From positions 434,001-473,870 of the forward strand of contig JASTWF010000365.1 in NCBI GenBank assembly GCA_030390025.1: DNA of 39,870 bases. The letters are read 5' to 3'. Below the pieces are notes generated by a model. The model did not search any database, was not told where the DNA came from, and saw nothing but the letters and a program-made list of their open reading frames with translations. Of the stretch, positions 694 to 36,979 are shown piece after piece. The stretch is from Squalus acanthias. Lineage: Eukaryota. A program made the translations under genes and the position numbers. Within the stretch, counting starts at the first letter, position 1. Each line of letters starts with the position of its first letter.

Positions 694-987
694 ATTGCAC
701 AGACAGTGTGATCGGAATAGACTGTGGCCGATCCAGCGACTCATGGGTCACCACACAAGTGATGGTCTCCCCGTCGATCTCCCCGCTGGGGACCGCACTG
801 AAATGGCTCTCCACGGTGATGGTTCCATCGCTGTTCTTGGTCTGGGTCGTGTTGACATTTCCCGCAACGTCCCCCTTCCAGATGATAGAAGATGCCGGCT
901 TCCCATTGGCCGAGGTGCAGACGGCCACGGGAACTTCAGTGGGCCCAGCCTTTTCCAGTAGCGGGCTGGCCGAATTATTAGGCTTGA
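694..987 (-). CDS. Nectin/PVR-like IgC2 exon, paralogous block (VKPNNSASP...AVCTSANGKPASSIIW...TCVVTHESLDRPQSIPITLSVQ)
   Basis: Acceptor tcttgcag|TC, donor CAAT|gtaagt, 294 nt, phase 1-1, open frame. The C-x-S-x-x-G-K-P...W...C-V-V-T-H pattern is typical of the second nectin domain. Confidence 0.88.
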
Positions 988-2838: not shown

Positions 2839-3139
2839 GGGGAGGGAGGGTTTTTAAAGGGCTCCCACAACCCATACAATGGAGGGAGGGGTCACCCACA
2901 CCCACCGGACGAGAGCATCCCGTCCAGCAGGAATTCCGAGCGGTCTCCACTCGCCGGGACTCTTTGGAGCGGGATCGCTAACCACTGGACCCAAGGCTGG
3001 CTCCGGGGCCGATGCCTTTCAAGAGCGAGGAGTCGAGACATCTTGTGCCTTTTCTGCCACACCTGGAGTGAAAGAAACCAGGCTCCTGGCACGAAAACAC
3101 GGCGGGCACGTCCGAGACGCAATCTGCCCGAAATTGGCA

Positions 3140-3480
3140 GCAGATTCAATCAAGGTGTTCAAAAACAGGAGGGGTTCTGATCGAGTAGAGGGGGAGAAAC
3201 CGTTTCCAGAGGCAGGAGGGTCGGTAACCAGAGGACACAGGTTTAAGATCATTGGTCAAAGAACCAGAGGGGGTGGGGGGGACCAGAATAATTTTTGTTT
3301 CACACACTGCGAGGCAGATTCAACTTTCAAAAGGGAATTGGATAAATATTTGAAAAGGAAACATTCACAGGGCTATGGGGAAAGGAGCAGGGGAAGAGTG
3401 GGCCGAATTGGAGAGCTCTCTCAAAGAGCCGGCACAGGAACGATGGGCTGAATGGCCTCCTCCTGTGCTGTGAGATTCTA
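3140..3480 (+). mobile_element. CR1 LINE 3' fragment
   Basis: Encodes GSVTRGHRFKIIG...FKRELDKYLK and ends gatgggctgaatggcctcctcctgtgctg. Copy at ~27321-27661. Confidence 0.7.
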
Positions 3481-3580
3481 CCCAGCGGCCTCCACCCTCC
3501 GCCGTTGCTTGGGAGGCGGGAAGCCGAGATGAGTCTCGGCCCCGCGAGGCCCACCTTAACCGAATAGTCCACAGACGTAC

Positions 3581-3931
3581 CTAGGACCGTCAAGTTGGTG
3601 GCGGCCTCCTGGTTGCCCTCGGGGTACGTGGCGAACTCGCAGCTATAAATCCCGTCGTCGTCCATCTGCAGTCTCTCGATGATAAGCGTGGCGTCCTCCA
3701 TGGAGACCTCACGGAAGTGGATGCGCCCCCCGGTCTCGGTGGGGTAATTGGTGCCATGGTCCGGGTTGTAGACGGCCAGGTTGACCTTGGCTCCCGAGGG
3801 GTCCTTGATCCAGGTGACCTGCGTGACCGTTAGCGTCTGAGCGGGGTCCACGAACTGGCAACGGAGGGCAGCCTGACTCCCCACGTAGCCGGTCACTTTG
3901 GGCTCCACCTTCACGTGTTGGGCATTGCACA
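3581..3931 (-). CDS. Nectin/PVR-like IgV exon, copy V3 (CNAQHVKVEPKVTG...LRCQF...VTQVTW...LAVYNPDHG...DATL...DDDGIYSCEFATYPEGNQEAATNLTVL)
   Basis: Acceptor ctgcag|TG, donor CTAG|gtacgt, 351 nt, phase 1-1, no stops. Has the V-set C...W...D-x-G-x-Y-x-C pattern and all three PVR motifs (VTQ, AX6G, TYP). No leader exon is visible for this copy. Confidence 0.88.
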
Positions 3932-3982
3932 CTGCAGCAGGAGGGAGGGGGAAAAAGACAGCGTTAGCGTGAACCACTTGAT

Positions 3983-4104
3983 GAAGAACACAAGAATTCG
4001 GAGCAGGAGCACGCCCTACGGCCTCTCGAACCTGCGCGGGATTCAATAAGATCATGGCTGATCTTCGACCAACTCCATTTTCCTGCCTGATCCCCATATC
4101 CCTC
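3983..4104 (-). mobile_element. CR1 LINE 3' end, interrupted by the 17-bp satellite
   Basis: Matches 31999-32120, which continues into recognisable CR1 ORF2 sequence. Confidence 0.7.
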
Positions 4105-7100
4105 GAGTCTCTCCCCTACTAGAGTCTCTCCCCTACTAGAGTCTCTCCCCTACTAGAGTCTCCCCCCTACTAGAGTCTCTCTCCTACTAGAGTCTCTCCC
4201 CTACTAGAGTCTCTCCCCTACTAGAGTCTCCCCCCTACTAGAGTCTCTCCCCTACTAGAGTCTCTCTCCTACTAGAGTCTCTCTCCTACTAGAGTCTCTC
4301 TCCTACTAGAGTCTCTCCCCTACTAGAGTCTCTCCCCTACTAGAGTCTCTCTCCTACTAGAGTCTCTCTCCTACTAGAGTCTCTCCCCTACTAGAGTCTC
4401 TCCCCTACTAGAGTCTCTCCCCTACTAGAGTCTCTCCCCTACTAGAGTCTCCCCCCTACTAGAGTCTCTCTCCTACTAGAGTCTCTCTCCTACTAGAGTC
4501 TCTCCCCTACTAGAGTCTCTCTCCTACTAGAGTCTCTCTCCTACTAGAGTCTCTCTCCTACTAGAGTCTCCCCCCTACTAGAGTCTCTCTCCTACTAGAG
4601 TCTCTCTCCTACTAGAGTCTCTCCCCTACTAGAGTCTCTCCCCTATTAGAGTCTCCCCCCTACTAGAGTCTCTCTCCTACTAGAGTCTCCCCCCTACTAG
4701 AGTCTCTCCCCTACTAGAGTCTCTCTCCTACTAGAGTCTCTCCCCTACTAGAGTCTCTCCCCTACTAGAGTCTCTCTCCTACTAGAGTCTCTCCCCTACT
4801 AGAGTCTCTCTCCTACTAGAGTCTCTCTCCTACTAGAGTCTCTCCCCTACTAGAGTCTCTCCCCTACTAGAGTCTCTCTCCTACTAGAGTCTCTCTCCTA
4901 CTAGAGTCTCTCCCCTACTAGAGTCTCTCCCCTACTAGAGTCTCTCTCCTACTAGAGTCTCTCCCCTACTAGAGTCTCTCTCCTACTAGAGTCTCCCCCC
5001 TACTAGAGTCTCCCCCCTACTAGAGTCTCTCCCCTACTAGAGTCTCTCTCCTACTAGAGTCTCTCCCCCTACTAGAGTCTCTCCCCTACTAGAGTCTCTC
5101 TCCTACTAGAGTCTCTCCCCTACTAGAGTCTCTCCCCTACTAGAGTCTCTCCCCTACTAGAGTCTCTCCCCTACTAGAGTCTCTCCCCTACTAGAGTCTC
5201 TCCCCTACTAGAGTCTCTCCCCTACTAGAGTCTCTCTCCTACTAGAGTCTCTCTCCTACTAGAGTCTCCCCCTACTAGAGTCTCTCTCCTACTAGAGTCT
5301 CTCTCCTACTAGAGTCTCTCCCCCTACTAGAGTCTCCCCCCTACTAGAGTCTCTCTCCTACTAGAGTCTCTCCCTACTAGAGTCTCTCCCCTACTAGAGT
5401 CTCCCCCCTACTAGAGTCTCTCTCCTACTAGAGTCTCCCCCCTACTAGAGTCTCTCCCCCTACTAGAGTTCCTCTCTCCCTACTAGAGTCTCCTACTAGA
5501 GTCTCCCCCCTACTAGAGTCTCTCCCCTACTAGAGTCTCCCCCCTACTAGAGTCTCACTCCCGCCCCCCTACTAGAGTCTCTCTCCTACTAGAGTCTCTC
5601 CCCTACTAGAGTCTCCCCCCTACTAGAGTCTCCCCCCTACTAGAGTCTCTCCCCTACTAGAGTCTCTCCCTACTAGAGTCTCTCCCCTACTAGAGTCTCC
5701 CCCTACTAGAGTCTCCCCCCTACTAGAGTCTCCCCCCTACTAGAGTCTCTCCCCTACTAGAGTCTCTCTCCTACTAGAGTCTCCCCCCTACTAGAGTCTC
5801 CCCCCTACTAGAGTCTCTCCCCTACTAGAGTCTCTCTCCTACTAGAGTCTCTCCCCTACTAGAGTCTCTCCCCTACTAGAGTCTCTCCCCTACTAGAGTC
5901 TCTCCCCTACTAGAGTCTCCCCCCTACTAGAGTCTCTCTCCTACTAGAGTCTCCCCCCTACTAGAGTCTCTCCCCTACTAGAGTCTCCCCCCTACTAGAG
6001 TCTCTCTCCTACTAGAGTCTCTCCCCTACTAGAGTCTCCCCCCTACTAGAGTCTCCCCCCTACTAGAGTCTCTCCCCTACTAGAGTCTCTCCCCCTACTA
6101 GAGTCTCTCCCCTACTAGAGTCTCTCTCCTACTAGAGTCTCCCCCCTACTAGAGTCTCCCCCCTACTAGAGTCTCTCCCCTACTAGAGTCTCTCCCCTAC
6201 TAGAGTCTCTCCCCTACTAGAGTCTCTCCCCTACTAGAGTCTCCCCCCTACTAGAGTCTCCCCCTACTAGAGTCTCTCCCCTACTAGAGTCTCTCCCCTA
6301 CTAGAGTCTCCCCCCTACTAGAGTCTCTCTCCTACTAGAGTCTCTCCCCTACTAGAGTCTCTCTCCTACTAGAGTCTCTCCCCTACTAGAGTCTCTCTCC
6401 TACTAGAGTCTCTCTCCTACTAGAGTCTCTCTCCTACTAGAGTCTCTCTCCTACTAGAGTCTCTCTCCTACTAGAGTCTCTCTCCTACTAGAGTCTCTCT
6501 CCTACTAGAGTCTCTCTCCTACTAGAGTCTCTCTCCTACTAGAGTCTCCCCCCTACTAGAGTCTCTCCCCTACTAGAGTCTCTCCCCTACTAGAGTCTCT
6601 CCCCTACTAGAGTCTCTCCCCTACTAGAGTCTCCCCCCTACTAGAGTCTCCCCCCTACTAGAGTCTCTCCCCTACTAGAGTCTCTCTCCTACTAGAGTCT
6701 CCCCCCTACTAGAGTCTCTCCCCTACTAGAGTCTCTCCCCTACTAGAGTCTCTCCCCCTACTAGAGTCTCTCCCCTACTAGAGTCTCTCTCCTACTAGAG
6801 TCTCTCCCCTACTAGAGTCTCCCCCCTACTAAGTACTAGGTCTCTCCTACTAGAGTCTCTCCCTACTAGAGTCTCTCTCCTACTAGAGTCTCCCCCCTAC
6901 TAGAGTCTCCTCCCTACTAGAGTCTCTCTCCTACTAGAGTCTCTCCCTACTAGCGTCTCACCCCTACTAGAGTCTCTCTCCCCCTACTAGAGTCTCCCCC
7001 CCTACTAGAGTCTCTCCCCTACTAGAGTCTCTCCCCTACTAGAGTCTCTCCCTACTAGAGTCTCTCCCCTACTAGAGTCTCTCCCTACTAGAGTCTCTCC

Positions 7101-10100
7101 CCCTACTAGAGTCTCTCCCTACTAGAGTCTCCCCCCTACTAGAGTCTCTCCCCTACTAGAGTCTCCCCCTACTAGAGTCTCTCTCCTACTAGAGTCTCCC
7201 CCTACTAGAGTCTCTCGCCCTACTAGAGTCTCTCCTCCTACTAGAGTCTCCCCCTACTAGAGTCTCTCCCCTACTAGAGTCTCTCTCCTACTAGAGTCCT
7301 CCCCCTACTAGAGTCTCTCCCTACTAGAGTCTCTCCCCTACTAGAGTCTCTCCCCTACTAGAGTCTCTCCCCTACTAGAGTCTCCCCCTACTAGAGTCTC
7401 CCCCCTACTAGAGTCTCTCCCCTACTAGAGTCTCTCCCCTACTAGAGTCTCTCCCTACTAGAGTCTCTCCCCTACTAGAGTCTCCCCCCTACTAGAGTCT
7501 CTCTCCTACTAGAGTCTCTCCCTACTAGAGTCTCTCCCCCTACTAGAGTCTCTCCCCTACTAGAGTCTCTCCCTACCTAGAGTCTCTCTCCCCTACTAGA
7601 GTCTCTCCCCCTACTAGAGTCTCCCCCCTACTAGAGTCTCTCCCCTACTAGAGTCTCTCCCCTACTAGAGTCTCTCTCCTACTAGAGTCTCTCCCCTACT
7701 AGAGTCCTCCCCCTACTAGAGTCTCTCCCTACTAGAGTCTCTCCCCCTACTAGAGTCTCTCCCCTACTAGAGTCTCTCCCCTACTAGAGTCTCTCCCCTA
7801 CTAGAGTCTCTCCCCTACTAGAGTCTCTCCCTACTAGAGTCTCTCTCCTACTAGAGTCTCTCCCCTACTAGAGTCTCTCTCCTACTAGAGTCTCTCCCCC
7901 TACTAGAGTCTCTCCCTACTAGAGTCTCTCTCCTACTAGAGTCTCCCCCTACTAGAGTCTCTCCCCTACTAGAGTCCTCCCCTACTAGAGTCTCTCCCCT
8001 ACTAGAGTCTCTCCCCTACTAGAGTCTCTCCCCTACTAGAGTCTCTCCCCTACTAGAGTCTCTCCCCTACTAGAGTCTCTCCCCTACTAGAGTCTCTCCC
8101 CTACTAGAGTCTCTCCCTACTAGAGTCTCTCTCCTACTAGAGTCTCTCCCCTACTAGAGTCTCCCCCCTACTAGAGTCTCTCCCCTACTAGAGTCTCTCC
8201 TACTAGAGTCTCCCCCCTACTAGAGTCTCTCTCCTACTAGAGTCCTCCCCCTACTAGAGTCTCTCCCCTACTAGAGTCTCCCCCTACTAGAGTCTCTCCC
8301 CTACTAGAGTCTCTCCCCTACTAGAGTCTCCCCCCTACTAGAGTCTCTCCCCTACTAGAGTCTCCTCCCTACTAGAGTCTCTCCCTACTAGAGTCTCTCC
8401 CCTACTAGAGTCTCTCTCCTACTAGAGTCTCCCCCCTACTAGAGTCTCTCCCTACTAGAGGTCTCCCCCCTACTAGAGTCTCTCCCCTACTAAGTCTCTC
8501 CCCTACTAGAGTCTCTCCCCTACTAGAGTCTCTCCCCCTACTAGAGTCTCTCCCCTACTAGAGTCTCCCCCCTACTAGAGTCTCTCCCCTACTAGAGTCT
8601 CTCCCCTACTAGAGTCTCTCCCCTACTAGAGTCTAGAGTCTCTCCCTACTAGAGTCTCCCCCCTACTAGAGTCTCTCTCCCTCCCTACTAGAGTCTCTCC
8701 CCTACTAGAGTCTCTCTCCTACTAGAGTCTCTCCCTCTACTAGAGTCTCTCTCCTACTAGAGGTCTCCCCTACTAGAGTCTCCCCCCTACTAGAGTCTCT
8801 CCCCTACTAGAGTCTCCCCCCTACTAGAGTCTCTCTCCCTACTAGAGTCTCTCCCCTACTAGAGCTCTCTCCTACTAGAGTCTCCCCCCTACTAGAGTCT
8901 CCCCCCTACTAGAGTCTCTCTCCTACTAGAGTCTCCCCCCTACTAGAGTCTCTCTCCTACTAGACGTCTCTCTCCTACTAGAGTTCTCACTGCCTCTAGA
9001 GTCCTCCCTACTAGAGTCTCTCCCCTACTAGAGTTCCCCCCATACTAGAGTCTCTCTCCTACTAGAGTCTCTCCCTCTACTAGAGTCTCTCCCCTACTAG
9101 AGTCTCTCTCCTACTAGAGTCTCCCCCTACTAGAGTCTCTCCCCTACTAGAGTCTCTCCCCTACTAGAGTCTCTCCCCTACTAGAGTCTCTCTCCTACTA
9201 GAGTTCCCCTAACTAGAGTCTCTCCCCTACTAGAGTCTCCCCCTACTAGAGTCTCTCCCCTACTAGAGTCTCCCCCCTACTAGAGTCTCTCTCCTACTCT
9301 GAGTCTCTCTCCTACTAGAGTCTCTCCCCCTACTAGAGTCTCTCCCTACTAGAGTCTCTCCCTACTAGAGTCTCCCCTCCTACTAGAGTCTCTCCCCTAC
9401 TAGAGTCTCTCTCTACTAGAGTCTCTCCCCTACTAGAGTCTCTCCCCTACTAGAGTCTCCCCCTACTAGAGTCTCTCCCCTACTAGAGTCTCTCCCCTAC
9501 TAGAGTCTCTCCCTACTAGAGTCTCCCCCCTACTAGAGTCTCTCTCTACTAGAGTCTCTCTCCCTACTAGAGCTCTCCCCCTACTAGTAGTCTCACCCCT
9601 ACTAGAGTCTCCCCCTACTAGAGTCTCTCCCCTACTAGAGTCTCTCTTCCTACTAGAGTCTCTCCCCTACTAGAGTCTCTCCCCTACTAGAGTCTCCCCC
9701 CCTACTAGAGTCTCCTCCTACTAGAGTCTCTCTCCTACTAGAGTCTCCCCCTACTATAGTCTCTCTCCCTACTAGAGTCTCTCTCCTACTAGAGTCTCTC
9801 CCTACTAGAGTCTCCTCCCCTACTAGAGTCTCTCTCCTACTAGAGTCTCTCCTCCTACTAGAGTCTCCCCCTACTAGAGTCTCTCCCTACTAGAGTCTCC
9901 CCCTACTAGAGTCTCCCCCTACTAGAGTCTCCCCTACTAGAGGTCTCTCCCCTACTAGAGTCTCTCCCCTACTAGAGTCTCTCCTACTAGAGTCTCTCCC
10001 CTACTAGAGTCCTCTCTCCTACTAGAGTCTCTCTCCTACTAGAGTCTCTCCCTACTAGAGTCTCTCTCCCTACTAGAGTCTCTCTCCTACTAGAGTCTCC

Positions 10101-13100
10101 CCCCCTACTAGAGTCTCTCCTACTAGAGTCTCTCCCCCTACTAGAGTCTCCCCCTACTAGAGTCTCTCCCCTACTAGAGTCTCCCCTACTAGAGTCTCTC
10201 CCCTACTTAGAGTCTCCCCCTACTAGAGTCTCTCACCTACTAGAGTCTCTCCCCCTACTAGAGTCTTTCCTACCCTACTAGAGTCTCTCCCCTACTAGAG
10301 TCTCTCTCCCTACTAGAGTCTCTCCCCCTACTAGAGTCTCCCCCTACTAGAGTCTCTCCCTACTAGAGTCTCTCCCCCTACTTGAGTCTCTCCCTACTAG
10401 AGTCTCTCCCCTACTAGAGTCTCCCCCTACTAGAGTCTCCCCCTACTAGAGTCCTCCCCCCTAACTAGAGTCTCTCCCCTACTAGAGTCTCTCTCCTACT
10501 AGAGTCTCTCCCCTACTAGAGTCTCTCCTACTAGAGTCTCTCCCTACTAGAGTCTCTCTCCTACTGAGTCTCTCTCCCTACTAGAGTCTCTCCCCTACTA
10601 GAGTCTCTCCCCTACTAGAGTCTCCACCCTACTAGAGTCTCTCTCCTACTAGAGTCTATCCCCTACTAGAGTCTCTCCACCTACTAGAGTCTCCCCCCCT
10701 ACTAGAGTCTCTCCCCCTACTAGAGTCTCCCCCTACTAGAGTCTCCCCCCTACTAGAGTCTCCCCCCCTACTAGAGTCTCCCCCCTACTAGAGTCTCTCC
10801 TACTAGAGTCTCCCCCCTACTAGAGTCTCTCCCCTACTAGAGTCTCTCTCCTACTAGAGTCTCCCCCCTACTAGAGTCTCCCCTACTAGAGTCTCTCTCC
10901 ACTAGAGTCTCTCCCCTACTAGAGTCTCCCCCCTACTAGAGTCTCTCCCCTACTAGAGTCTCTCCCCTACTAGAGTCTCTCTCCTACTAGAGTCTCTCCC
11001 TACTAGAGTCTCTCTCCCCTACTAGAGTCTCTCCCCCTACTAGAGTCTCTCCCCTACTAGAGTCTCTCCCCCTACTAGAGTCTCTCCCCTACTAGAGTCT
11101 CTCCCCCTACTAGAGTCTCCCCCCTACTAGAGTCTCTCTCCTACTAGAGTCTCTCTCCCTACTAGAGTCTCTCCCCTACTAGAGTCTCCCCCCTACTAGA
11201 GTCTCTCCCCTACTAGAGTCTCCCCCCTACTAGAGTCTCTCTCCCCTACTAGAGTCTCCCCCCCTACCCCTACTAGAGTCTCTCCCCTACTAGAGTCTCT
11301 CCCCTACTAGAGTCTCTCTCCCTACTAGAGTCTCTCCCCTACTAGAGTCTCCCCCTACTAGAGTCTCTCCCCCTACTAGAGTCTCTCTCCTACTAGAGTC
11401 TCTCCCCTACTAGAGTCTCCCCCTACTAGAGTCTCTCTCCTACTAGAGTCTCTCCCCTACTAGAGTCTCTCCCCTACTAGAGTCTCTCCCCTACTAGAGT
11501 CTCTCTCCTACTAGAGTCTCCCCCCTACTAGAGTCTCCCCCCTACTAGAGTCTCTCCCCTACTAGAGTCTCTCCCTACTAGAGTCTCTCCCCTACTAGAG
11601 TCTCTCTCCTACTAGAGTCTCCCCCCTACTAGAGTCTCCCCCTACTAGAGTCTCTCTCCTACTAGAGTCTCTCCCCTTCTAGAGTCTCTCCCCCTACTAG
11701 AGTCTCTCCCTCTAGTGTCTCTCCCTACTAGAGTCTCTCTCCCTACTAGAGTCTCTCCCTACTAGAGTCCCCCCTACTAGAGCTCTCTCCTACTAGAGTG
11801 CTCCCCCCTACTAGAGTCTCTCTCCTACTAGAGTCTCCCCCCTACTAGAGTCTCCCACCTACTAGAGTCTCTCTCCTACTAGAGTCTCTCCCCTACTAGA
11901 GTCTCTCCCACTAGGTCTCTAGAGTCTCTCCCCTACTAGAGTCTCTCTCCTACTAGAGTCCTCTCCCCTACTAGAGTCTCTCCCCCTACTAGAGTCTCTC
12001 CCCTACTAGAGTCTCCTCTCCTACTAGAGTCTCCTCCCTACTAGAGTCTCTCTCTACTAGAGTCTCTCCCCTACTAGAGTCTCACCCCTACTAGAGTCTC
12101 TCCCCTACTAGAGTCTCTCTCCTACTAGAGTCTCTCCCCTACTAGAGTCTCCCCCCTACTAGAGTCTCCCCCCTACTAGAGTCTCCCCCTACTAGAGTCT
12201 CTCTCCCTACTAGAGTCTCTCTCCTACTAGAGTCTCCCCCTACTAGAGTCTCTCTCCTACTAGAGTCTCCCCCCTACTAGAGTCTCTCTCCTACTAGAGT
12301 CTCTCTCCTACTAGAGTCTCTCCCCTACTAGAGTCTCTCCCCTACTAGAGTCTCCCCCCTACTAGAGTCTCTCCCCTACTAGAGTCTCTCCCCCCTACTA
12401 GAGTCTCTCTCCTACTAGAGTCTCCTCCCTACTAGAGTCTCTCCCCCTACTAGAGTCTCTCTCCTACTAGAGTCTCTCTCCCTACTAGAGTCTCTCCCCT
12501 ACTAGAGTCTCTCCCCTACTAGAGTCTCTCCCTACTAGAGTCTCTCCCCTACTAGAGTCTCTCTCCTACTAGAGTCTCTCCCCTACTAGAGTCTCCCCCC
12601 TACTAGAGTCTCTTCGGTCTCCCCTACTAGAGTCTCTCCCCCTACTAGAGTCTCCCCCCTACTAGAGTCTCTCCCCTACTAGAGTCTCTCCCTACTAGAG
12701 TCTCTCCCCTACTAGAGTCTCCCCCCTACTAGAGTCTCCCCCTACTAGAGTCTCTCTCCTACTAGAGTCTCTCCCCTACTAGAGTCTCTCCCCCTACTAG
12801 AGTCTCCTCCTCCTACTAGAGTCTCTCCCTACTAGAGTCTCTCCCTACTAGAGTCTCTCTCCCTACTAGAGTCTCTCCCCTACTAGAGTCTCTCTCCTAC
12901 TAGAGTCTCTCCCCTACTAGAGTCTCTCTCCCCTACTAGAGTCTCCGCCCCTACTAGAGTCTCCCCCCTACTAGAGTCTCCCCCCTACTAGAGTCTCTCC
13001 CCTACTAGAGTCTCCCCCCTACTAGAGTCTCTCCCCTACTAGAGTCTCTCCCCTACTAGAGTCTCTCTCCTACTAGAGTCTCCCCCCTACTAGAGTCTCC

Positions 13101-16100
13101 CCCCTACTAGAGTCTCCCCCTACTAGAGTCTCTCCCCCTACTAGAGTCTCTCCCCTACTAGAGTCTCTCTCCTACTAGAGTCTCTCCCCTACTAGAGTCT
13201 CCCCCCTACTAGAGTCTCTCCCCCTTACTAGAGTCTCTCCCTACTAGGAGTCTCTCCCTACTAGAGTCTCTCCCCTACTAGAGTTCTCCCCCCTACTAGA
13301 GTCTCCCCTACTAGAGTCTCTCCCCTACTAGAGTCTCCCCCCTACTAGAGTCTCTCTCCCCTACTAGAGTCTCTCCCTACTAGAGTCTCTCCCCTACTAG
13401 AAGTCTCCCCTACTGAGTCCTCCCCCTACTAGAGTCTCTCTCCTACTAGAGTCTCTCTCCTACTAGAGTCTCCCCCCTACTAGAGTCTCTCCCCTACTAG
13501 AGTCTCTCTCCTACTAGAGCTCTCCCTACTAGAGTCTCTCTCCCTACTAGAGTCTCTCCTACTAGAGTCTCTCCCCTACTAGAGTCTCCCCCTACTAGAG
13601 TCTCTCCCCTACTAGAGTCTCTCCCCTACTAGAGTTTCCCCCTACTAGAGTCTCTCTCCTACTAGAGTCTCTCCCCTACAAGAGTCTCCCCCCTACTAGA
13701 GTCTCTCCCCTACTAGAGTCTCCCCCTACTAGAGTCTCCCCCTACTAGAGTCTCTCTCCTACTAGAGTCTCTCCCTACTAGAGTCTCCCCTACTAGAGTC
13801 CTCTCCCCTACTAGAGTCTCTCCCTACTAGAGTCTCCCCCCTACTAGAGTCACTCCCCTACTAGAGTCTCTCCCCTACTAGAGTCTCTCTCCTACTAGAG
13901 TCTCTCCCCTACTAGAGTCTCTCTCCTACTAAGAGTCTCTCCCCCTACTAGAGTCTCTCCCCCCTACTAGAGGCTCCCCCCTACTAGAGGTCTCTCCCTA
14001 CTAGAGTCTCCCCCCTACTAGAGTCTCACCCTACTAGAGTCTCTCCCTACTAGAGTCTCTCCCCCTACTAGAGTCTCTCCCCTACTAGAGTCTCCCCCTA
14101 CTAGAGTCTCCCCTACTAGAGTCTCCCCCCTACTAGAGTCTCTCTCCTACTAGAGTCTCCCCCCTACTAGAGTCCTCCCCCTACTAGAGTCTCCCCCTAC
14201 TAGAGTCTCTCCCCTACTAGAGTCTCTCCCCCCTACTAGAGTCTCTCTACTAGAGTCTCTCCCCTACTAGAGTCTCCCCCCTACTAGAGTCTCCCCCTAC
14301 TAGAGTCTCTCTCCTACTAGAGTCTCCCCCTACTAGAGTCTCCCCCCTACTAGAGTCTCTCCCCTACTAGAGTCTCTCCCCTACTAGAGTCTCTCCCCTA
14401 CTAGAGTCTCTCCCCCTACTAGAGTCTCTCCCCTACTAGAGTCTCTCCCCTACTAGAGTCTCTCCCCCTACTAGAGTCTCTCCCCTACTAGAGTCTCCCC
14501 CCTACTAGAGTCTCTCCCTACTAGAGTCTCCCCCCTACTAGAGTCTCTCCCCTACTAGAGTCTCCCCCCTACTAGAGTCTCCTCCCCTACTAGAGTCTCT
14601 CCCTACTAGAGTCTCCCCCTACTAGAGTCTCTCCCCTACTAGAGTCTCCCCCTACTAGAGTCTCTCCCCCTACTAGAGTCTCTCTCCTACTAGAGTCTCT
14701 CCCCTACTAGAGTCTCCCCCTACTAGAGTCTCTCCCCTACTAGAGTCTCTCCCTACTAGAGTCTCCACCCTACTAGAGTCTCTCTCCTACTAGAGTCTCC
14801 CCCCTACTAGAGTCTCCCCCCTACTAGAGTCTCTCCCCTACTAGAGTCTCTCCCTACTAGAGTCTCCCCCCTACTAGAGTCTCTCCCCTACTAGAGTCTC
14901 TCCCTACTAGAGTCTCTCTCCTACTAGAGTCTCTCCCCTACTAGAGTCTCTCTCCCTACTAGAGTCTCCCCCTACTAGAGTCTCTCTCCTACTAGAGTCT
15001 CTCTCCTACTAGAGTCTCTCCCTACTAGAGTCTCCTCTCCCTACTAGAGTCTCTCCCTACTAGAGTCTCACCCCTACTAGAGTCTCTCTCCTACTAGAGT
15101 CTCTCCCCCTACTAGAGTCTCTCCCCTACTAGAGTCTCTCTCCTACTAGAGTCCTCCCCCTACTAGAGTCTCTCCCCTACTAGAGTCTCTCCCCTACTAG
15201 AGTCTCTCCCTACTAGAGTCTCCCCCTACTAGAGTCTCTCCCCTACTAGAGTCTCCCCCCTACTAGAGTCTCTCCCCTACTAGAGTCTCTCCTCCCCTAC
15301 TAGAGTCTCTCCCTACTAGAGTCTCTCCCCTACTAGAGTCTCCCCCCTACTAGAGTCTCTCCCCTACTAGAGTCTCCCCCCTACTAGAGTCTCTCTCCTA
15401 CTAGAGTCTCTCCCCTACTAGAGTCTCTCCCCTACTAGAGTCTCCCCCCTACTAGAGTCTCTCCCCTACTAGAGTCTCTCTCCCTACTAGAGTCTCTCTC
15501 CTACTAGAGTCTCTCCCCTACTAGAGTCTCTCCCCTACTAGAGTCTCCCCCTACTAGAGTCTCTCCCCCTACTAGAGTCTCCCCCTACTAGAGTCTCTCC
15601 CTACTAGAGTCTCTCTCCTACTAGAGTCTCTCCCCTACTAGAGTCTCCCCCTACTAGAGTCTCCCCCCTACTAGAGTCTCCCCCCTACTAGAGTCTCCCT
15701 CCTACTAGAGTCTCCCCCTACTAGAGTCTCCCCCTACTAGAGTCTCCCCCCTACTAGAGTCTCTCTCCTACTAGAGTCTCTCTCCTACTAGAGTCTCTCC
15801 CCTACTAGAGTCTCTCTCCTACTAGAGTCTCTCCCCTACTAGAGTCTCTCCCCTACTAGAGTCTCTCTCCTACTAGAGTCTCTCCCCTACTAGAGTCTCT
15901 CCTACTAGAGTCTCTCCCCTACTAGAGTCTCTCTCCTACTAGAGTCTCTCTCCTACTAGAGTCTCTCCCCTACTAGAGTCTCTCTCCTACTAGAGTCTCC
16001 CCCTACTAGAGTCTCTCCCCTACTAGAGTCTCTCTCCTACTAGAGTCTCTCCCCTACTAGAGTCTCTCTCCTACTAGAGTCTCTCTCCTACTAGAGTCTC

Positions 16101-19100
16101 TCCCCTACTAGAGTCTCCCCCCTACTAGAGTCTCTCTCCTACTAGAGTCTCTCCCCTACTAGAGTCTCTCCCCTACTAGAGTCTCTCCCTACTAGAGTCT
16201 CTCTCCCCTACTAGAGTCTCTCCTCCTACTAGAGTCTCTCCCCTACTAAGTCTCTGTCTCCCTACTAGAGTCTCCTCCTACTAGAGTCTCTCTCCTACTA
16301 GAGTCTCCCCCCTACTAAGTCTCCCCCTACTAGAGTCTCCCCCCTACTAGAGTCTCTCTCCTACTAGAGTCTCCCCCTACTAGAGTCTCCCCCTACTAGA
16401 GTCTCTCCCCCTACTAGAGTCTTCCCCTACTAGAGTCTCTCCCCTACTAGAGTCTCTCCCCTACTAGAGTCTCTCCCTACTAGAGTCTCTCCCTACTAGA
16501 GTCTCTCCCCTACTAGAGTCTCTCCCTCTAGAGTCTCTCCCCTACTAGAGTCTCCCCCTACTAGAGTCTCTCCCCTACTAGAGTCTCTCTCCTACTAGAG
16601 TCTCCCCCCCTACTAGAGTCTCCCCCTACTAAGTCTCTCCCCCTACTAGAGTCTCTCTCCTACTAGAGTCTCTCACCTACTAGAGTCTCTCCCTCTACTA
16701 GAGTCTCTCCCCTACTAGAGTCTCTCTCCTACTAGAGTCTCTCCCTACTAGAGTCTCACCCCTACTAGAGTCTCTCCCTACTAGAGTCTCTCCCCTACTA
16801 GAGTCTCTCCCTACTAGAGTCTCCCCCCTACTAGAGTCTCTTCCCCTACTAGAGTCTCTCTCCCTACTAGAGTCTCTCTCCTACTAGAGTCTCTCCCCTA
16901 CTAGAGTCTCCCCCCTACTAGAGTCTCTCTCCTACTACTAGAGTCTCCCCCCTACTAGAGTCTCCCCCCTACTAGAGTCTCTCCCCTACTAGAGTCTAGC
17001 TCCCCCCTACTAGAGTCTCTCTCCTACTAGAGTCTCACCCCTACTAGAGTCTCTCCCCTACTAGAGTCTCCCCCCTACTAGAGTCCCCCCCTACTAGTAG
17101 TCTCCCCCCCCTCTAGAGTCTCTCCCCTACTAGAGTCTCTCACCTTCTAGAGTCTCTCCCCTACTAGAGTCTCTCCCTACTAGAGTCTCCCCCTACTAGA
17201 GTCTCCCCCCTACTAGAGTCTCCCCCTACTAGAGTCTCTCTCCTACTAGAGTCTCTCTCCTACTAGAGTCTCTCCCCTACTAGAGTCTCTCTCCTACTAG
17301 AGTCCTCCCCTACTAGAGTCTCACCCCTACTAGAGACTCTCCCTACTAGAGTTCTCTCCCCTACTAGAGTCTCTCCCCTACTAGAGTCTCCCCTACTAGA
17401 GTCTCCCCCTACTAGAGTCTCTCTCCTACTAGAGTCTCCCCCCTACTAGAGTCTCTCCCCTACTAGAGTCTCCCCCTACTAGAGTCTCTCTCCTACTAGA
17501 GTCTCTCCCCTACTAGAGTCTCTCTCCTACTAGAGTCTCCCCCTACTAGAGTCTCTCCCCTACTAGAGTCTCTCCCCTACTAGAGTCTCTCCCCTACTAG
17601 AGTCTCTCTCCTACTAGAGTCTCTCCCCTACTAGAGTCTCTCCCTCTCTCCTACTAGAGTCTCTCCCCTACTAGAGTCTCTCCCCTACTAGAGTCTCTCC
17701 CCTACTAGAGTCTCTCCCCTACTAGAGTCTCTCTCCTACTAGAGTCTCTCCCCCTACTAGAGTCTCTCCCCTACTAGAGTCTCTCTCCTACTAGAGTCTC
17801 TCTCCTACTAGAGTCTCTCCCCTACTAGAGTCTCTCCCCTACTAGAGTCTCCCCCCTACTAGAGTCTCTCCCCTACTAGAGTCTCTCTCCTACTAGAGTC
17901 TCCCCCCTACTAGAGTCTCTCCCCTACTAGAGTCTCTCCCCTACTAGAGTCTCTCCCCTACTAGAGTCTCCCCCCTACTAGAGTCTCTCCCCTACTAGAG
18001 TCTCCCCCTACTAGAGTCTCCCCCTACTAGAGTCTCCCCCCTACTAGAGTCTCTCCCCTACTAGAGTCTCTCCCTACTAGAGTCTCTCTCCCCTACTAGA
18101 GTCTCTCTCCTACTAGAGTCTCTCTCCTACTAGAGTCTCTCTCCCTACTAGAGTCTCTCCCCTACTAGAGTCTCTCCCCTACTAGAGTCTCTCCCCTACT
18201 AGAGTCCTCTCTCCTACTAGAGTCTCTCCCCTACTAGAGTCTCTCCCCTACTAGAGTCTCTCCCCTACTAGAGTCTCTCCCCTACTAGAGTCTCTCCCCT
18301 ACTAGAGTCTCTCTCCTACTAGAGTCTCTCCCTACTAGAGTCTCTCTCCTACTAGAGTCTCTCCCCTACTAGAGTCTAGAGTCTCCCCCTACTAGAGTCT
18401 CCTCTCCTACTAGAGTCTCTCTCCTACTAGAGTCTCTCTCTACTAGAGTCTCTCTCCTACTAGAGTCTCCCCCTACTAGAGTCTCCCCCCTACTAGAGTC
18501 TTCTCTCCCCTACTAGAGTCTCTCCCCTACTAGGTCTCCCCCCTACTAGAGTCTCTCTCCCTACTAGAGTCTCCCCCCTACTAGAGTCTCCCCCTACTAG
18601 ATGTCTCTCCCCCTACTAGAGTCTCTCCCCTACTAGAGTCTCCCCCCCTACTAGAGTCTCTCCCATACTAGAGTCTCACCCTACTAGAGTCTCTCCCCCT
18701 ACTAGAGTCTCCCCCTACTAGAGTCTCTCCCCCTACTAGAGTCTCCCCCTACTAGAGTCTCTCCCCTACTGAGTCTCTCCCTTACTAGAGTCTCTCTCCT
18801 ACTAGAGTCTCCCACCTACTAGAGTCTCTCCCTACTAGAGTCTCCCCCCTACTAGAGTCTCTCCCCTACTAGAGTCTCTCCCCTACTAGGTCTCCTCCCT
18901 ACTAGAGTCTCTCTCCTACTAGAGTCTCACCCTACTAGAGTCTCTCCCCCCTACTAGAGTCTCTCCCCTACTAGAGTCTCTCCCCTACTAGAGTCTCCCC
19001 TACTAGAGTCTCTCCCCTACTAGAGTCTCTCCCCTACTAGAGTCTCTCCTACTAGAGTCTCTCTCCCTACTAGAGTCTCCCCCCTACTAGAGTCTCCCCC

Positions 19101-22100
19101 TACTAGAGTCTCCCCTACTAGAGTCTCTCTCCTACTAGTGTCTCTCCCCCTACTAGACGTCTCTCCCCTACTAGAGTCTCTCCCCCTACTAGAGTCTCCC
19201 CTACTAGAGTCCTCTCATCCTCCCCCTACTAGATCTCCCCCTACTAGAGTCTCCCCCCCTACTAGAGTCTCCCTTCCCTACTAGAGTCTCTCCCCTACTA
19301 GAGTCTCCCCTACTAGAGTCTCTCCCCCTACTAGAGTCTCCCTCCTACTAGAGTCTCTCCCCTACTAGAGTCTCTCTCCTACTAGAGTCTCCCCCCTACT
19401 AGAGTCTCCCCCCTACTAGAGTCTCTCCTACTAGAGTCTCCCTCCTACTAGAGTCTCCCTCCTACTAGAGTCTCCCCCCTACTAGAGTCTCCCCCCTACT
19501 AGAGTCTCCCCCCTACTAGACGTCTCCTCCTACTAGAGTCTCCCTCCTACTAGAGTCTCTCCCCCTACTAGAGTCTCCCCCTACTAGAGTCTCCCCCATA
19601 CTAGAGTCTCCCCCTACTATTCTCCTCCTACTAGAGTCTCCCTCCTACTAGAGTCTCTCCCCCTACTAGAGTCTCCCCCCTACTAGAGTCTCTCCCCCTA
19701 CCTAGAGTCCTCCACCTACTAGAGTCTCTCCCCTACTAGAGTCTCACCCCTACTAGAGTCTCCTCTCCCCCTACTAGAGTCTCTCCCCCTACTAGAGTCT
19801 CTCTCCCTACTAGAGTCTCTCCCTACTAGAGTCTCCCCCCTACTAGAGCTCTCTCCTACTAGAGTCTCCCCCCCTACTAGAGTCTCCTTCCTACTAGAGT
19901 CTCCCCCTAACTAGAGTCTCTCTCCTAATAGAGTCTCTCCCCTACTAGAGTCTCTCCCCTACTAGAGTCTCTCCCCCTACTAGAGTCTCCCCCCTACTAG
20001 AGTCTCTCCCTACTAGAGTCTCTCCCCTACTAGAGTACTAGAGTCTCTCCCCTACTAGAGTCTCTCCTCCTACTAGAGTCTCTCCCCTACTAGAGTCTCT
20101 CCCCTACTAGAGTCCTCCCCTACTAGAGTCTCTCTCCTACTAGAGTCTCCCCCCTACTAGAGTCTCCCCCCTACTAGAGTCTCTCCCTACTAGAGTCTCT
20201 CCCCTACTAGAGTCTCTCCCCTACTAGAGTCTCCCCCCTACTAGAGTCTCGTCCCTACTAGAGTCTCTCCCCTACTAGAGTCTCTCAACTACTAGAGTCT
20301 CTCCCTACTGAGTCTCTCCCCTACTAGAGTCTCTCTCCTACTAGAGTCTCTCTCCTACTAGAGTCTCCCCCCTACTAGAGTCTCTCCCCCTACTAGAGTC
20401 TCCCCCCTACTAGAGTCTCTCCCTACTAGAGTCTCCCCCTACTAGGAGTCCTCCCCCCTACTCGAACGTCTCTCCCCTACTAGAGTCTCACCCTACTAGA
20501 AGTCTCTCTCCTACTAGAGTCTCCCCCTACTAGAGTCTCGCCCCCTACTAGAGTCTCTCACCTACTAGAGTCTCTCCCCTACTAGAGTCTCTCTCCTACT
20601 AGAGTCTCTCCCCTACTAGAGTCCTCTCACCTACTAGAGTCTCCCCCCTACTAGAGTCTCTCCCCTACTAGAGTCTCTCCTCCTACTAGAGTCTCTCCCC
20701 TACTAGAGTCTCCCCCCTACGAGAGTCTCTCCCCTACTAGAGTCTACCCCTACTAGAGGTCCTCCTCCTACTAGAGTCTCTCCCTACTAGAGTCTCCCCG
20801 ACGAGAGTCCTTCCTACTAGAGGTCTCTCCCTACTAGAGTCTCTCCCCCTACTAGAGTCTCTCCCCTACTAGAGTCTCTCCCCTACTAGAGTCTCTCCCC
20901 TACTAGAGTCTCTCTCCTACTAGAGTCTCTCTCCTACTAGAGTCTCTCTCCTACTAGAGTCTCTCCCCTACTAGAGTCTCTCTCCTACTAGAGTCTCTCT
21001 CCTACTAGAGTCTCTCTCCTACTAGAGTCTCTCCCCTACTAGAGTCTCTCCCCTACTAGAGTCTCTCTCCTACTAGAGTCTCTCCCCTACTAGAGTCTCT
21101 CCCCTACTAGAGTCTCTCTCCTACTAGAGTCTCTCTCCTACTAGAGTCTCCCCCCTACTAGAGTCTCTCTCCTACTAGAGTCTCTCTCCTACTAGAGTCT
21201 CCCCCCTACTAGAGTCTCTCTCCTACTAGAGTCTCTCTCCTACTAGAGTCTCTCCCCTACTAGAGTCTCTCCCCTACTAGAGTCTCTCTCCTACTAGAGT
21301 CTCCCCCCTACTAGAGTCTCCCCCCTACTAGAGTCTCCCCCCTACTAGAGTCTCTCCCCCTACTAGAGTCTCCCCCCTACTAGAGTCTCCCCCCTACTAG
21401 AGTCTCCTCCCCTACTAGAGTCTCTCCACCTACTAGAGTCTCCCCCCTACTAGAGTCTCCCCCTACTAGAGTCTCTCCCCTACTAGAGTCTCTCCCCTAC
21501 TAGAGTCTCCCCCCTACTAGAGTCTCTCCCCCTACTAGAGTCTCTCTCCTACTAGAGTCTCCCCCCTACTAGAGTCTCCCCTACTAGAGTCCTCCCCTAC
21601 TAGAGTCTCTCCCCCTACTAGAGTCTCTCCCCTACTAGAGTCTCCCCCCTACTAGAGTCTCTCCCCTACTAGAGTCTCCCCCCTACTAGAGTCTCTCCCC
21701 TACTAGAGTCTCATCCATACTAGAGCTCTCCTACTGAGTCTCCCCCTACTAGAGTCTCCCCCTACTAGAGTCTCCCCCTACTAGAGCTCTCCTCCTACTA
21801 GAGTCTCCCCTACTAGAGTCTCTCCCCTACTAGAGTCTCCCCTCTAACTAGAGTCTCTCCCCCTACTAGAGTCTCTCCCCTACTAGAGTCTCTCCCCTAC
21901 TAGAGTCTCTCTCCTACTAGAGTCTCCCCCCTACTAGAGTCTCCCCCTACTAGAGTCTCCCCCTACTAGAGTCTCTCCCCTACTAGAGTCTCCCCCCTAC
22001 TAGAGTCTCTCTCCCTACTAGAGTCTCTCCCCTACTAGAGTCTCTCCCCTACTAGAGTCTCTCCTACTAGAGTCTCTCCCCTACTAGAGTCTCCCTCCTA

Positions 22101-25100
22101 CTAGAGTCTCTCCCCTACTAGAGTCTCTCCCCTACTAGAGTCTCTCACCCTACTAGTGTCTCTCCCCTACTAGAGGCTCTCTACTACTAGAGTCTCTCCC
22201 CTAATAGAGTCTCTTCCCCTACTAGAGTCTCTCGCCCCTTCTAGAGTCTCTCTCAGCCCCTAGCTAGAGCTGATCTCTCCCCTACTGAGTCTCTCGCCCT
22301 CTAGGAGTCTCTCTCCTACTAGAGTCTCTCCCTACTAGAGTCTCTCTCCCTACTAGATGGTCTCTCTCTCCTACTAGAGTCTCTCTCCTACTAGAGTCTC
22401 TCTCCTACTAGAGTCTCTCTCCCTACATAGAGTCTCTCTTCCTACGAGATTCTCTCTCCTACTAGAGTCTCCCCCTACTAGAGGTCTCTCTCCTACTAGA
22501 GTCTCTCTCCTACCTAGAGTCTCTCCCCTACTAGAGTCTCCCCCCTAGCTTGGAGTCTCTCCTCTACTAGAGTCTCTCTCCTCTAGAGTCTCTCTCCTGA
22601 CTAGAGTCTTCCTCCTAGCTAGAGTCTCTCCCCTACTAGAGTCTCTCTCCTACTAGAGTCTCTCTCCTACTAGAGTCTCGCCTACTAGAGAGTCTCCCCC
22701 CCTACTAGAGTCTCTCCCTACTAGAGTCTCTCCCCTACTAGAGTCTCTCCCCTACTAGAGTCTCCCCCCTACTAGAGTCTCCCCCTACTAGAGTCTCTCC
22801 CCTACTAGAGTCTCTCCCCTACTAGAGTCTCTCTCCTACTAGAGTCTCTCTCCTACTAGAGTCTCTCCCCTACTAGAGTCTCTCCCCTACTAGAGTCTCT
22901 CCCCTACTAGAGTCTCTCCCCTACTAGAGTCTCTCCCCTACTAGAGTCTCCCCCCTACTAGAGTCTCTCCCCTACTAGAGTCTCTCCCCTACTAGAGTCT
23001 CTCCCCTACTAGAGTCTCTCTCCCTACTAGAGTCTCTCCCCTACTAGAGTCTCTCCCCTACTAGAGTCTCTCTCCTACTAGAGTCTCTCTCCTACTAGAG
23101 TCTCTCCCCTACTAGAGTCTCCCCCTACTAGAGTCTCCCCCCTACTAGAGTCTCTCTCCTACTAGAGTCTCCCCCCTACTAGAGTCTCCCCTACTAGAGT
23201 CTCTCTCCTACTAGAGTCTCTCCCCTACTAGAGTCTCTCCCCTACTAGAGTCTCTCCCCTACTAGAGTCTCTCTCCTACTAGAGTCTCTCCCCTACTAGA
23301 GTCTCCCCCCTACTAGAGTCTCTCTCCTACTAGAGTCTCTCCCCTACTAGAGTCTCTCTCCTACTAGAGTCTCTCTCCTACTAGAGTCTCTCTCCTACTA
23401 GAGTCTCTCTCCTACTAGAGTCTCCCCTACTAGAGTCTCTCCCCTACTAGAGTCTCTCCCCTACTAGAGTCTCTCTCCTACTAGAGTCTCTCTCCTACTA
23501 GAGTCTCTCCCCTACTAGAGTCTCTCTCCTACTAGAGTCTCTCTCCTACTAGAGTCTCCCCCCTACTAGAGTCTCTCCCTACTAGAGTCTCTCCCCTACT
23601 AGAGTCTCCCCCTACTAGAGTCTCCCCCCTACTAGAGTCTCCCCCCTACTAGAGTCTCCCCTACTAGAGTCTCTCTCCTACTAGAGTCTCTCTCCTACTA
23701 GAGTCTCTCCCCTACTAGAGTCTCTCTCCTACTAGAGTCTCTCTCCTACTAGAGTCTCTCCCCTACTAGAGTCTCCCCCCTACTAGAGTCTCTCCCCTAC
23801 TAGAGTCTCTCTCCTACTAGAGTCTCTCCCCTACTAGAGTCTCTCTCCTACTAGAGTCTCTCCCCTACTAGAGTCTCCCCCCTACTAGAGTCTCTCCCCT
23901 ACTAGAGTCTCTCCCCTACTAGAGTCTCTCTCCCCTACTAGAGTCTCTCTCCTACTAGAGTCTCTCCCCTACTAGAGTCTCCCCCCTACTAGAGTCTCTC
24001 TCCTACTAGAGTCTCCCCCCTACTAGAGTCTCTCTCCTACTAGAGTCTCTCCCCTACTAGAGTCTCTCCCCTACTAGAGTCTCTCCTACTAGAGTCTCCC
24101 CCTACTAGAGTCTCCCCCCTACTAGAGTCTCTCTCCTACTAGAGTCTCTCCCCTACTAGAGTCTCCCCCTACTAGAGTCTCTCCCCCTACTAGAGTCTCT
24201 CTCCTACTAGAGTCTCTCTCCCTACTAGAGTCTCCCCCTACTAGAGTCTCTCCCCTACTAGAGTCTCCCCCTACTAGAGTCTCTCCCCTACTAGAGTCTC
24301 TCCCCTACTAGAGTCTCTCTCCTACTAGAGTCTCTCCCCTACTAGAGTCTCCTCCCCTACTAGAGTCCTCCCCTACTAGAGTCTCTCCCTACTAGAGTCT
24401 CTCCCCTACTAGAGTCTCCCCCCTACTAGAGTCTCTCCCCTACTAGAGTCTCCCCCCTACTAGAGTCTCCCCCCTACTAGAGTCTCTCCCCTACTAGAGT
24501 CTCTCCCCTACTAGAGTCTCCCCCCTACTAGAGTCTCTCCCTACTAGAGTCTCCCCTACTAGAGTCTCCCCCCTACTAGAGTCTCCCCCCTACTAGAGTC
24601 TCTCTCCTACTAGAGTCTCCCCCCTACTAGAGTCTCTCTCCTACTAGAGTCTCCCCCCTACTAGAGTCTCCCCCCTACTAGAGTCTCTCCCCCTACTAGA
24701 GTCTCTCCCCTACTAGAGTCTCTCTCCTACTAGAGTCTCTCTCCTACTAGAGTCTCTCCCCTACTAGAGTCTCTCCCTACTAGAGTCTCTCTCCTACTAG
24801 AGTCTCTCCCCTACTAGAGTCTCTCCCCCCTACTAGAGTCTCTCCCCTACTAGAGTCTCCCCCCTACTAGAGTCTCTCTCCTACTAGAGTCTCTCTCCTA
24901 CTAGAGTCTCTCCCCTACTAGAGTCTCTCTCCTACTAGAGTCTCTCCTACTAGAGTCTCCCCCCTACTAGAGTCTCTCCTACTAGAGTCTCTCTCCTACT
25001 AGAGTCTCCCCCCTACTAGAGTCTCTCCCCTACTAGAGTCTCTCTCCTACTAGAGTCTCTCTCCTACTAGAGTCTCTCCTACTAGAGTCTCTCCCCTACT

Positions 25101-34233: not shown

Positions 34234-34884
34234 CACCCAACACATTAAAGCAGATGATTTAAGCTTTTTTTTAAAAAGAAAATGCATGTGGAATGTCTCT
34301 CTGCCTCCGCTTCCCCCTCCCCCCCGCAAACCCCCAAGTTTGAATACTTTACAGGAACATACAAGAAATAGTGATCACAAACGGTATGGTATGTTAGTGA
34401 GAATCCCTCAACTCCCCAAGAATCTTAGTTCCTTTGTTAATGTAATCTCTCCATCTTCTGATCAAATGCCTGATTGGTTTTTTTTTGAGGGGGTGGGGGC
34501 AAGAGAGAAGGTATAAATTACATCGATTTCTTTCAGATAACAACATAGATCCAGTCTATGAGTCATTTGGGGCATGACATGTGGCGATTGTAGCTTGCTC
34601 GGGAAGAACAGGTGACTTTCGACATATGGTTCCCAAAACTCTGGGTGTTTTCCTCCCCCGGTCTCGAGTCTGTTGTTGACTAATCCATAGAGATTGTTTG
34701 CTATGATTCAGCAACAAGTCCCAGTATCGATGGATCATGTGACCACCAGGATGTTAGAAGGAGAATTAGGTGGACCTTGGCCTTTTTTCAACCTAGCTAC
34801 TTCCCCAGACCCTTTCGAAAGGTTTAAGTATTTATCCATTTCCTTTTTAAAAGCTATTATAGATTCTGCTCCCATCATTCTATG

Positions 34885-35445
34885 CCAACAACAACAACTT
34901 GTATTTATACAGCGCCTTTAACGTAGTAAGACATCCCAAGGCAGCTTCACAGGAGTGTTATCAAACAATATTTGACACCGAGCCACATAAGGTGGATTAG
35001 GACAGCTTGGTCAAAGAGGTTGGTTTTAAGGAGCGTCTTAAAAGGAGAGGTGGAGAGGTTTAGGGAGGGAATTCCAGCGCTCGGGGCCCAGGCAGCTGAA
35101 GGCACGGCCACCAATGGTGGAGCGATGGAAATTGGGGGATGGACAAGAGGCCAGAGTTGGAGGAGCGCAGAGATCTCGGGGAGGTTGTGGGGCTGGAGGA
35201 GGTCACAGAGATAGGGAGGGGAGGAGGCCCTGGAGGGATTTGAAAACAAGGATGTGAATTTTGAAATCGAGGCGTTGCTGGACTGGGAGCCAATGTAGGT
35301 CAGCGAGCACAGGGGGTGATGGGTGAACGGGACTTGGTGCGAGTTAGGACACGGGGCAGCCGAGTTTCAGATGAGCTCAAGTTTATGGAGGGTGCAAGGC
35401 GGGAGAGCGTTGGTATAGTCGAGTCTGGAGGTAACAAAGGCATGA
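34885..35445 (-). mobile_element. L2-type LINE 3' fragment
   Basis: Homologous to 405-660 but longer and more diverged. Encodes FKTLLKTNLFDQA and has a (caa)n tail. Confidence 0.75.
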
Positions 35446-35519
35446 ATATATCTCAGTGTGTGTATGGTATTTATTTATGAAGCCCTTGAATTAATCTGTT
35501 AGTTATCAACCAGTGGAAA

Positions 35520-35770
35520 TAGTTCTTCCCTGGTTACTTTATCAGAACTTCTCAATTCTGACCACCATCAGATCTCCTCTGAACCTGCTCTGTTCGAATG
35601 GAGAGAGCCCCAGTTTCTCTAGTCAGTCCTCATAACTCAAGTCTCTCAAATCGCTGGACTGATCCCAGTAAATCTCTCCTACACCCTCTCCCTGGTGTGG
35701 ACAACCTCTCTCATAAGCAAAACGCCCCAAAACTAGACACAATATTCGACTGGCAACCCATCCAATACTC
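35520..35770 (-). mobile_element. Old degenerate CR1 fragment
   Basis: Minus strand encodes LEKLGLSPFEQSRFRGDLMVV, similar to CR1 LxxLGLySLExRRxRGDLI. Confidence 0.45.
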
Positions 35771-35981
35771 AGTTGATTTAAAGTTAGCTTTTAATTTAAA
35801 AAAAAAAGTTTTTCTATTTTCTTTTAACAGACATTGCTAAAATAAGCTCCATTAAAAAAGAGGGACACCAAACCCTTCACTGAGACACAAACAATGACCC
35901 CCACCAGGAGAGAGAGAGAGAAAGGGGGCATTTTAGAAACTCGATTCTCACACCCAACAAAGCAAACGCCCTTTTCACTCT

Positions 35982-36001
35982 CACACACACACACACACAC
36001 A
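35982..36001 (+). repeat. (CA)n microsatellite
   Basis: About 10 CA units. Confidence 0.8.
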
Positions 36002-36921: not shown

Positions 36922-36979
36922 CTGCCAAGATATGAAGACAGATGATGGCGAGGAGTTCCTTGAGACTCAATGTGGCCAT
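36922..36979 (-). CDS. Exon 1 coding part: signal peptide MATLSLKELLAIICLHILA
   Basis: ATG in good Kozak context (AGCATGG), hydrophobic h-region, donor GCAG|gtagga. 58 nt gives phase 1, compatible with all three V exons. Translated by hand; too short for the ORF track. Confidence 0.85.

Follow-up and report, generated by a model that had tools for sequence, protein, structure and literature searches.

The nectin-2-like locus and its repeated exons

The window, by which we mean the whole stretch of 39,870 nucleotides of Squalus acanthias DNA that was analysed, is the end of contig C2944. On its minus strand is a nectin-2-like gene of cartilaginous fish, with exons that match the Pfam V-set and C2-set_2 families and that are 70-78% identical to nectin-1/2-like proteins of sharks and rays (elasmobranchs). 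The exons occur on the contig in the order leader, V, C2, C2, transmembrane (TM) region and tail, which is the arrangement that defines the nectin/PVR family. The gene inventory comprises three V exons (A, B, and C), two first-C2 exons, one leader, and one set of later exons, the last all located left of the window (Table 1). Copy A is the one that is contiguous with the rest of the gene. The third V exon, copy B, carries a different LINE body and was absent from the initial annotation. A tblastn search with four queries in the 50 kb to the left revealed no further exons, which were later found by using a full-length relative as the query. Contigs from two runs of one study, guessed to be RNA, end at exon borders, which is compatible with splicing.

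Table 1. Features of the window and their positions
Feature	Position	Strand	Remarks
C2-set exon, copy A	694..987	-	remaining exons left of the window: C2944:431425, 428677, 387969, 382565
V-set Ig exon A	3581..3931	-	nectin-2-like; acceptor 172 bp from the array
CR1-type LINE 3′ end, copy A	3985..4104	-	tail, 3′ UTR and last ORF2 codons; array starts within
17-bp minisatellite, 1,242 units	4105..25229	+	main variants a GAGTCTCTCCCCTACTA, b GAGTCTCTCTCCTACTA, c GAGTCTCCCCCCTACTA; random order; ends at N
Run of N	25230..25879		genome copy likewise N for 500 bases from 25230
Transmembrane-like exon	26186..26290	-	approximate bounds; region matched at 98-99% by copies on contig C339
V exon B (third copy)	27762..28112	-	
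Hybrid LINE	28165..28740	-	tail shared with copies A and C; body that of the LINE to the left of window position 1; full length kept at the seed site
C2-set exon, copy C	29398..29691	-	
V exon C	31597..31947	-	
Same LINE insertion as in copy A	32001..32301	-	in-frame loss of 9 nt at the seed site relative to the family
Single 14-bp unit GAGTCCCCCTACTA plus GA	32121..32136	+	likely near-ancestral seed state
Leader (signal peptide) coding exon	36922..36979	-	sole one found in the assembly

The copies also differ in ways that are separate from the array. A 1-kb segment with inverted repeat copies at its bounds is flipped between copy A (1527-2527) and copy C (30231-31232). At position 31564, copy C is missing ~680 bp of intron (2865-3547 in A), beginning ~30 bases past the V-exon donor, and the resulting junction was found in run X3. 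The amino acid differences between V exon C and V exons A and B are clustered (KVILAVYNPNF versus KVNLAVYNPDH, at 31757-31797 and 3741-3781), and this stretch is possibly a binding face.

The contig to the right of the N run (25880-37000) could encode a chimeric protein composed of a leader, V, C2, V, and then a TM region. The latter, whose TM-like exon is not this gene's own TM exon, resembles two copies on C339, and the switch is located inside a shared repeat at ~26400-27015. This switch could be a real recombination or a chimeric join. Elsewhere in the assembly (G000), C339 carries nectin-like V/C2 exons in clusters, and C30:46000-2355000 contains at least 29 related copies of the TM region. 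Two V-exon matches with identical scores are located 5.5 kb apart in another nectin gene (C22:62040879 and 62046399) and constitute another duplication, real or false. Arrays of a 33-bp minisatellite flank the leader in opposite orientations (33204-34128 and 37500-39870), with more copies left of the window, and the scaffold terminates inside one such array. A MITE-like element of ~480 bp (36345-36826) has 123-bp inverted ends at 96% and many genome copies.

A LINE insertion common to all three V-exon copies

A LINE is inserted at an identical point beside each of the three V exons. We tentatively take it to be a CR1 element on the basis of ORF2 C-terminal motifs and the initial annotation, and a Pfam search of its C-terminal piece gave no match. 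The element is very abundant (900,534 first-look candidates, the best 150 of which, the query's own place aside, are at 89-92%). A 651-aa frame of one copy matches RVT_1 with an E-value of 5.7e-34, and this reverse-transcriptase ORF ends near a short-repeat 3′ tail, as is characteristic of CR1-clade LINEs.

The LINE variants of copies A and C agree right up to the base that precedes the array. In contrast, 15 sites separate B from A and C, and 14 of these are at or right of position 4038. In copy B, the tail of the V-exon insertion is joined to the body found in the LINE that lies downstream of the C2 exon. The V-C2 duplication therefore probably originated by unequal crossing-over between two LINEs. 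A contig from organism B passes from the exon into the LINE tail, and thus the insertion is likely to predate the array. Synthesis of the array in a telomere-like fashion or by reverse-transcriptase stutter was rejected because the insertion is probably the older of the two.

A locus-specific minisatellite within the LINE

In copy A, the LINE sequence gives way ~120 bp from its 3′ end, in the last codons of the ORF, to a tandem array with a period of 17 bp (1242.6 copies; unit-wise alignment resolves 1,242 units). This array sits in intron 1 and begins 172 bp from the AG acceptor (3932-3933) of V exon A. The initial annotation had described this left junction, some 1,240 copies, a location inside a CR1 3′ end and a splice acceptor ~170 bp away, all of which are borne out, with the name CR1 being tentative. 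The size of 21 kb that it gave is present in the sequence but is only a minimum: the array runs into N at 25230 and its far end is absent from the sequence, so that 21.1 kb is a lower bound on its length. The run of N is likely a scaffold gap. Candidate far junctions were sought throughout the assembly, where one form was found only at copy C and the other form had no matches.

As far as the assembly reaches, the array is specific to this locus, as had been expected. A 24-mer of the commonest unit has 350 matches in the 3.7-Gb assembly and a degenerate 16-mer has 1,070, and every one of these is located inside the window. The array had been called a satellite, but head-to-tail units of 10-100 bp at one locus are the mark of a minisatellite, here a candidate VNTR, whereas the many genome-wide arrays of a satellite DNA family were not found in this assembly search, which unassembled arrays would escape. 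A literature search, conducted on main texts and with terms other than the gene name, found no paper on this locus.

Unit variants and their order

Exact copies of three variants make up 760 of the 1,242 units, with a, b, and c represented 369, 221, and 170 times (49, 29, and 22%). Two positions, each either C or T, distinguish these variants. Of the four combinations possible at these sites, the fourth was observed 7 times versus 51 expected if the sites were independent, and this scarcity fits a nested order of unit changes that would lead from a 14-mer, described below, to c, then a, and then b.

There is no clear trace of higher-order repeat structure or block duplication in neighbour, self-alignment, and lag tests of the array. 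Neighbouring variants appear independent (chi2 2.8, p = 0.59), the best self-alignment score of the variant order is 13 compared with 12-20 in 40 shuffles (the cleanest parts behave alike), and variant frequencies are even along the 21 kb (p = 0.48). Faint order is detectable as repeated 8-unit strings (32 versus 15.9 ± 5.7 in shuffled arrays) and as a z of 3.7 at the strongest of 599 lags (298). In simulations with the same masked units, duplication alone gave scores of 28-516 in all 20 runs. When conversion tracts of 1-3 units were included, scores of at most 14 were reached in 9 of 60 runs, compared with 0 of 40 for tracts of 10-30 units. This model of growth is crude, with 5 runs per setting, and suggests that the array likely grew with conversion tracts of 1-3 units.

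The interior of the array contains 3.4% edits, mainly 1-base indels (631 indels versus 93 substitutions). The first kilobase has a single edit, whereas further in the density reaches 66 per kilobase. Units other than a, b, and c are presumably sequencing noise from a poorly polished interior. An extension of this idea is that a real array exists but is uniform, or much shorter, with the random variant order being base-calling or consensus noise. Independent frequencies that stay stationary over 21 kb are indeed the pattern of per-unit miscalls, the point at which a TC run yields to a C run is all that separates the variants, and the interior is rich in errors. However, the first 56 units contain 1 edit and still include 24 a, 23 b, and 8 c units, whereas a consensus of 10-20 reads would yield 70-81% a. 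Moreover, the variants stay at a length of 17 although errors are mainly indels, and the missing repeated blocks speak against an assembler that looped over the same reads. We therefore consider noise a very unlikely source of the random order. The three variants appear to be real, as judged from the clean first 56 units of the assembly sequence rather than from reads.

A probable near-ancestral unit at the second site

The LINE insertion in copy C reads ...cccatatccctc-GAGTCCCCCTACTA-GA-tcgatttcag, with the single unit at 32121-32134. The initial annotation had noted one array unit at this site. A single unit is indeed present in the LINE 3′ end, but it is a 14-mer, not the 17-mer. It has no matches in the array, and its junction has one genome match. 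Among 37 copies of the LINE family, 23 have a downstream anchor at a distance of 38 nt, three at 28 nt, three at 39 nt, and one each at 36 and 41 nt, and the remaining six have no anchor. In copy C this distance is 29 nt, allowing for a 1-base offset, which corresponds to a loss of 9 nt relative to the family. Judging from these comparisons, the unit is likely near-ancestral but not pristine.

Both the 14-mer and the LINE family are without the 3 extra bases of the array's three main variants. Because the single unit agrees with the family in this respect, growth in copy A is simpler than collapse in copy C. The initial annotation had proposed growth from one unit, or else complete collapse in the other copy, and growth in the left-copy lineage appears to be the likelier direction, even though copy C has itself lost 9 nt. 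Collapse would require that A and C separated only after an array had formed, whether of the 14-mer or of a 17-mer that later lost 3 bp, and that C deleted this array together with 13 nt of flanking LINE. The shortfall of copy C would agree with such an event, and TACTA-GA is readable as one unit followed by the opening two bases of another, as if the deletion had started 2 bp into the second unit. Yet a collapsing 17-mer array should leave a 17-mer, while the 14-mer occurs nowhere in the array and, where the three bases are inserted, has the state of the family. A 12-nt deletion between two CTA triplets, together with two small insertions, accounts for the 9-nt loss just as simply. On balance, collapse is an improbable history for this site.

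The growth reading begins with the sequence of the LINE itself. At the seed site, the family carries a 6-bp sequence repeated in near-direct fashion (GATTCC..GAGTCC, 10 bp apart), and 10 nt are lost there in 3 of 37 family copies, two of which may be related. These losses show that the seed site slips. Models of minisatellite birth invoke a flanking direct repeat of 5-10 bp (Haber and Louis 1998 and Taylor and Breden 2000, as cited in PMC3389668). The family offers the 6-bp near-repeat, whereas copy C offers only 2 bp (GA), and the far flank is outside the sequence. Small local changes would have created a 14-bp unit, which would then have undergone tandem slippage via the 6-bp repeat or the 2-bp GA overlap. 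By one route, duplication would have occurred through the 6-bp repeat and the deletion in C would have come later; by the other, a shared deletion would have preceded duplication through the GA overlap. Three added bases would have given variant c, and two successive C-to-T changes variant a and then b. Growth to >1,240 units with conversion tracts of 1-3 units may finally have erased the footprints of duplication. Taken together, we think it probable that the array arose in the LINE 3′ end by slippage from a 14-bp unit like that at 32121 and then grew with unit-scale reshuffling.

Age of the array

The flanks of copies A and C differ by 1.9% (29 differences over 1-1526) to 3.5-4.4%, consistent with the few percent reported in the initial annotation. 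At a mutation rate of 7e-10 per generation, borrowed from the epaulette shark (PMC10587355), a divergence of 1.9-4.4% corresponds to 14-31 million generations, which is only an upper bound on the age of the array. The earlier view that the array grew very recently does not follow from flank divergence, which caps the age. There is one substitution in the first 950 bp of the array, which would place the common ancestor of the present units within roughly a million generations. Such shared ancestry would reflect recent growth or turnover.

Duplicate or other haplotype

The one-unit site had been labelled a paralogue. A similar block is certainly present, but the chances are about even that it is a duplicate or the other haplotype placed across the gap. 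According to the latter reading, which we judge to have an equal claim, the one-unit site is an allele, and two divergent haplotypes of one gene have been scaffolded side by side as a false heterotype duplication. Gaps and half depth are described as marks of such false duplications (PMC9516828). Here, 500 N separate the copies on one scaffold in the genome copy, and only ~14 kb remain to the scaffold end. There are two blocks but one leader region and one set of second-C2, TM, and last exons, and elasmobranch relatives (462-501 aa) are as long as one V-C2-C2 gene. The search for leaders scored 40 of 8,879 candidates, however, and a second leader could sit in the gap.

Sequencing depth in run X3 is closer to the allele expectation in five of six contigs. 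Observed depths are 24.5 (expected 23.0 for alleles and 45.9 for paralogues), 29.1 (20.6-27.9 and 41.3), 28.8 (26.1 and 52.3), and, for two more contigs, 16.2 and 19.4 (13.4 and 26.8). The sixth contig fits paralogues, with 52.7 versus 48.6 expected (24-35 for alleles). A single contig (26.8) serves as the depth control, the depth of a contig should not be equated with copy number, and X3 may derive from an animal or species other than the one assembled. When contigs are aligned with copy C, other LINE copies swamp the LINE part, and no contig is readable across the seed site. In addition, A-type and C-type letters occur together in other samples of organism A, and 9 of the 702 compared bases of X1 depart from copy A; both observations favour alleles.

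Conversely, true tandem copies do exist on one contig, namely V exons B and C, and B runs on into the TM region of the C339 cluster, which indicates that real rearrangement exists here. The divergence of 3.5-4.4% is also high for alleles, given a pi of 0.002 in the epaulette shark. The locus resembles described cases of false heterotype duplication in having similar blocks on one scaffold with a gap between them, and it differs in that a real tandem V-exon duplication is also present on the right contig (PMC9516828).

Should the two sites be alleles, the animal is heterozygous for one unit versus >21 kb. The label 'paralogue' would change and the birth mechanism would stay the same. A tentative and rather doubtful extension is that one shark carries both a one-unit and a 21-kb-plus allele, with the birth of the array still segregating and each unit drawn independently from three variants rather than by block copying.

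Possible effects on the host gene

A coding role for the array was rejected: two of the three minus-strand frames stop at about every third unit, and an identical pair of stops recurs in all three. Purines predominate in the transcribed strand, which carries G-quadruplex motifs of the long-loop type only (120 with loops to 13, and 0 with loops to 7). Instability of the CEB1 minisatellite is reportedly linked to G-quadruplex formation. A putative effect of the array on splicing of V exon A is possible, and the array is most likely neutral intronic DNA.

Relationship to known minisatellites

By analogy with described systems, the array can be regarded as a known kind of element, namely a LINE-derived minisatellite with one-to-many growth like that of CACNA1C. 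The 30-mer in intron 3 of human CACNA1C is reported as one copy in chimpanzee versus 3-30+ kb in humans (bioRxiv 10.1101/311795), with pervasive internal tandem duplication (PMC11118589). As in that report, the shark array is intronic, occupies a single locus, has a one-copy comparator, and has a majority unit unlike the single copy. In contrast to CACNA1C as described there, where the comparator is another species, the comparator here is in the same assembly and perhaps the same animal. Furthermore, the shark array has no clear sign of internal tandem duplication, and it is without a known enhancer or trait link.

At least 23% of human minisatellites and satellites are given as transposon-derived (PMC3389668). 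The shark array fits this pattern because it starts in a retroelement at a built-in short near-direct repeat. It differs from the cases described there in that its unit is not a plain slice of the element, so that local indels were needed first, and its far flank is outside the sequence. Human minisatellites with randomly interspersed variant units have been described (PMC2363947), and meiotic conversion is a proposed force that shuffles such units (PMC3389668). The shark array likewise mixes two or three unit variants on a G-rich strand, with conversion as the proposed shuffler, whereas it differs from those human minisatellites in having far more units (1,242), a short unit, and long-loop G-quadruplex motifs only. 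Its random unit order also contrasts with the block duplications of CACNA1C.

The founding state of long minisatellites is usually lost, and for this reason their start is hard to study (PMC3389668). At this locus, a near-founding state is present next to the array, and the succession of units from the 14-mer through c and a to b may be readable. If the two sites are paralogues, the array is one more LINE-derived array. If they are alleles, intermediate lengths would be typable in the population, and mutation would be observable in pedigrees.
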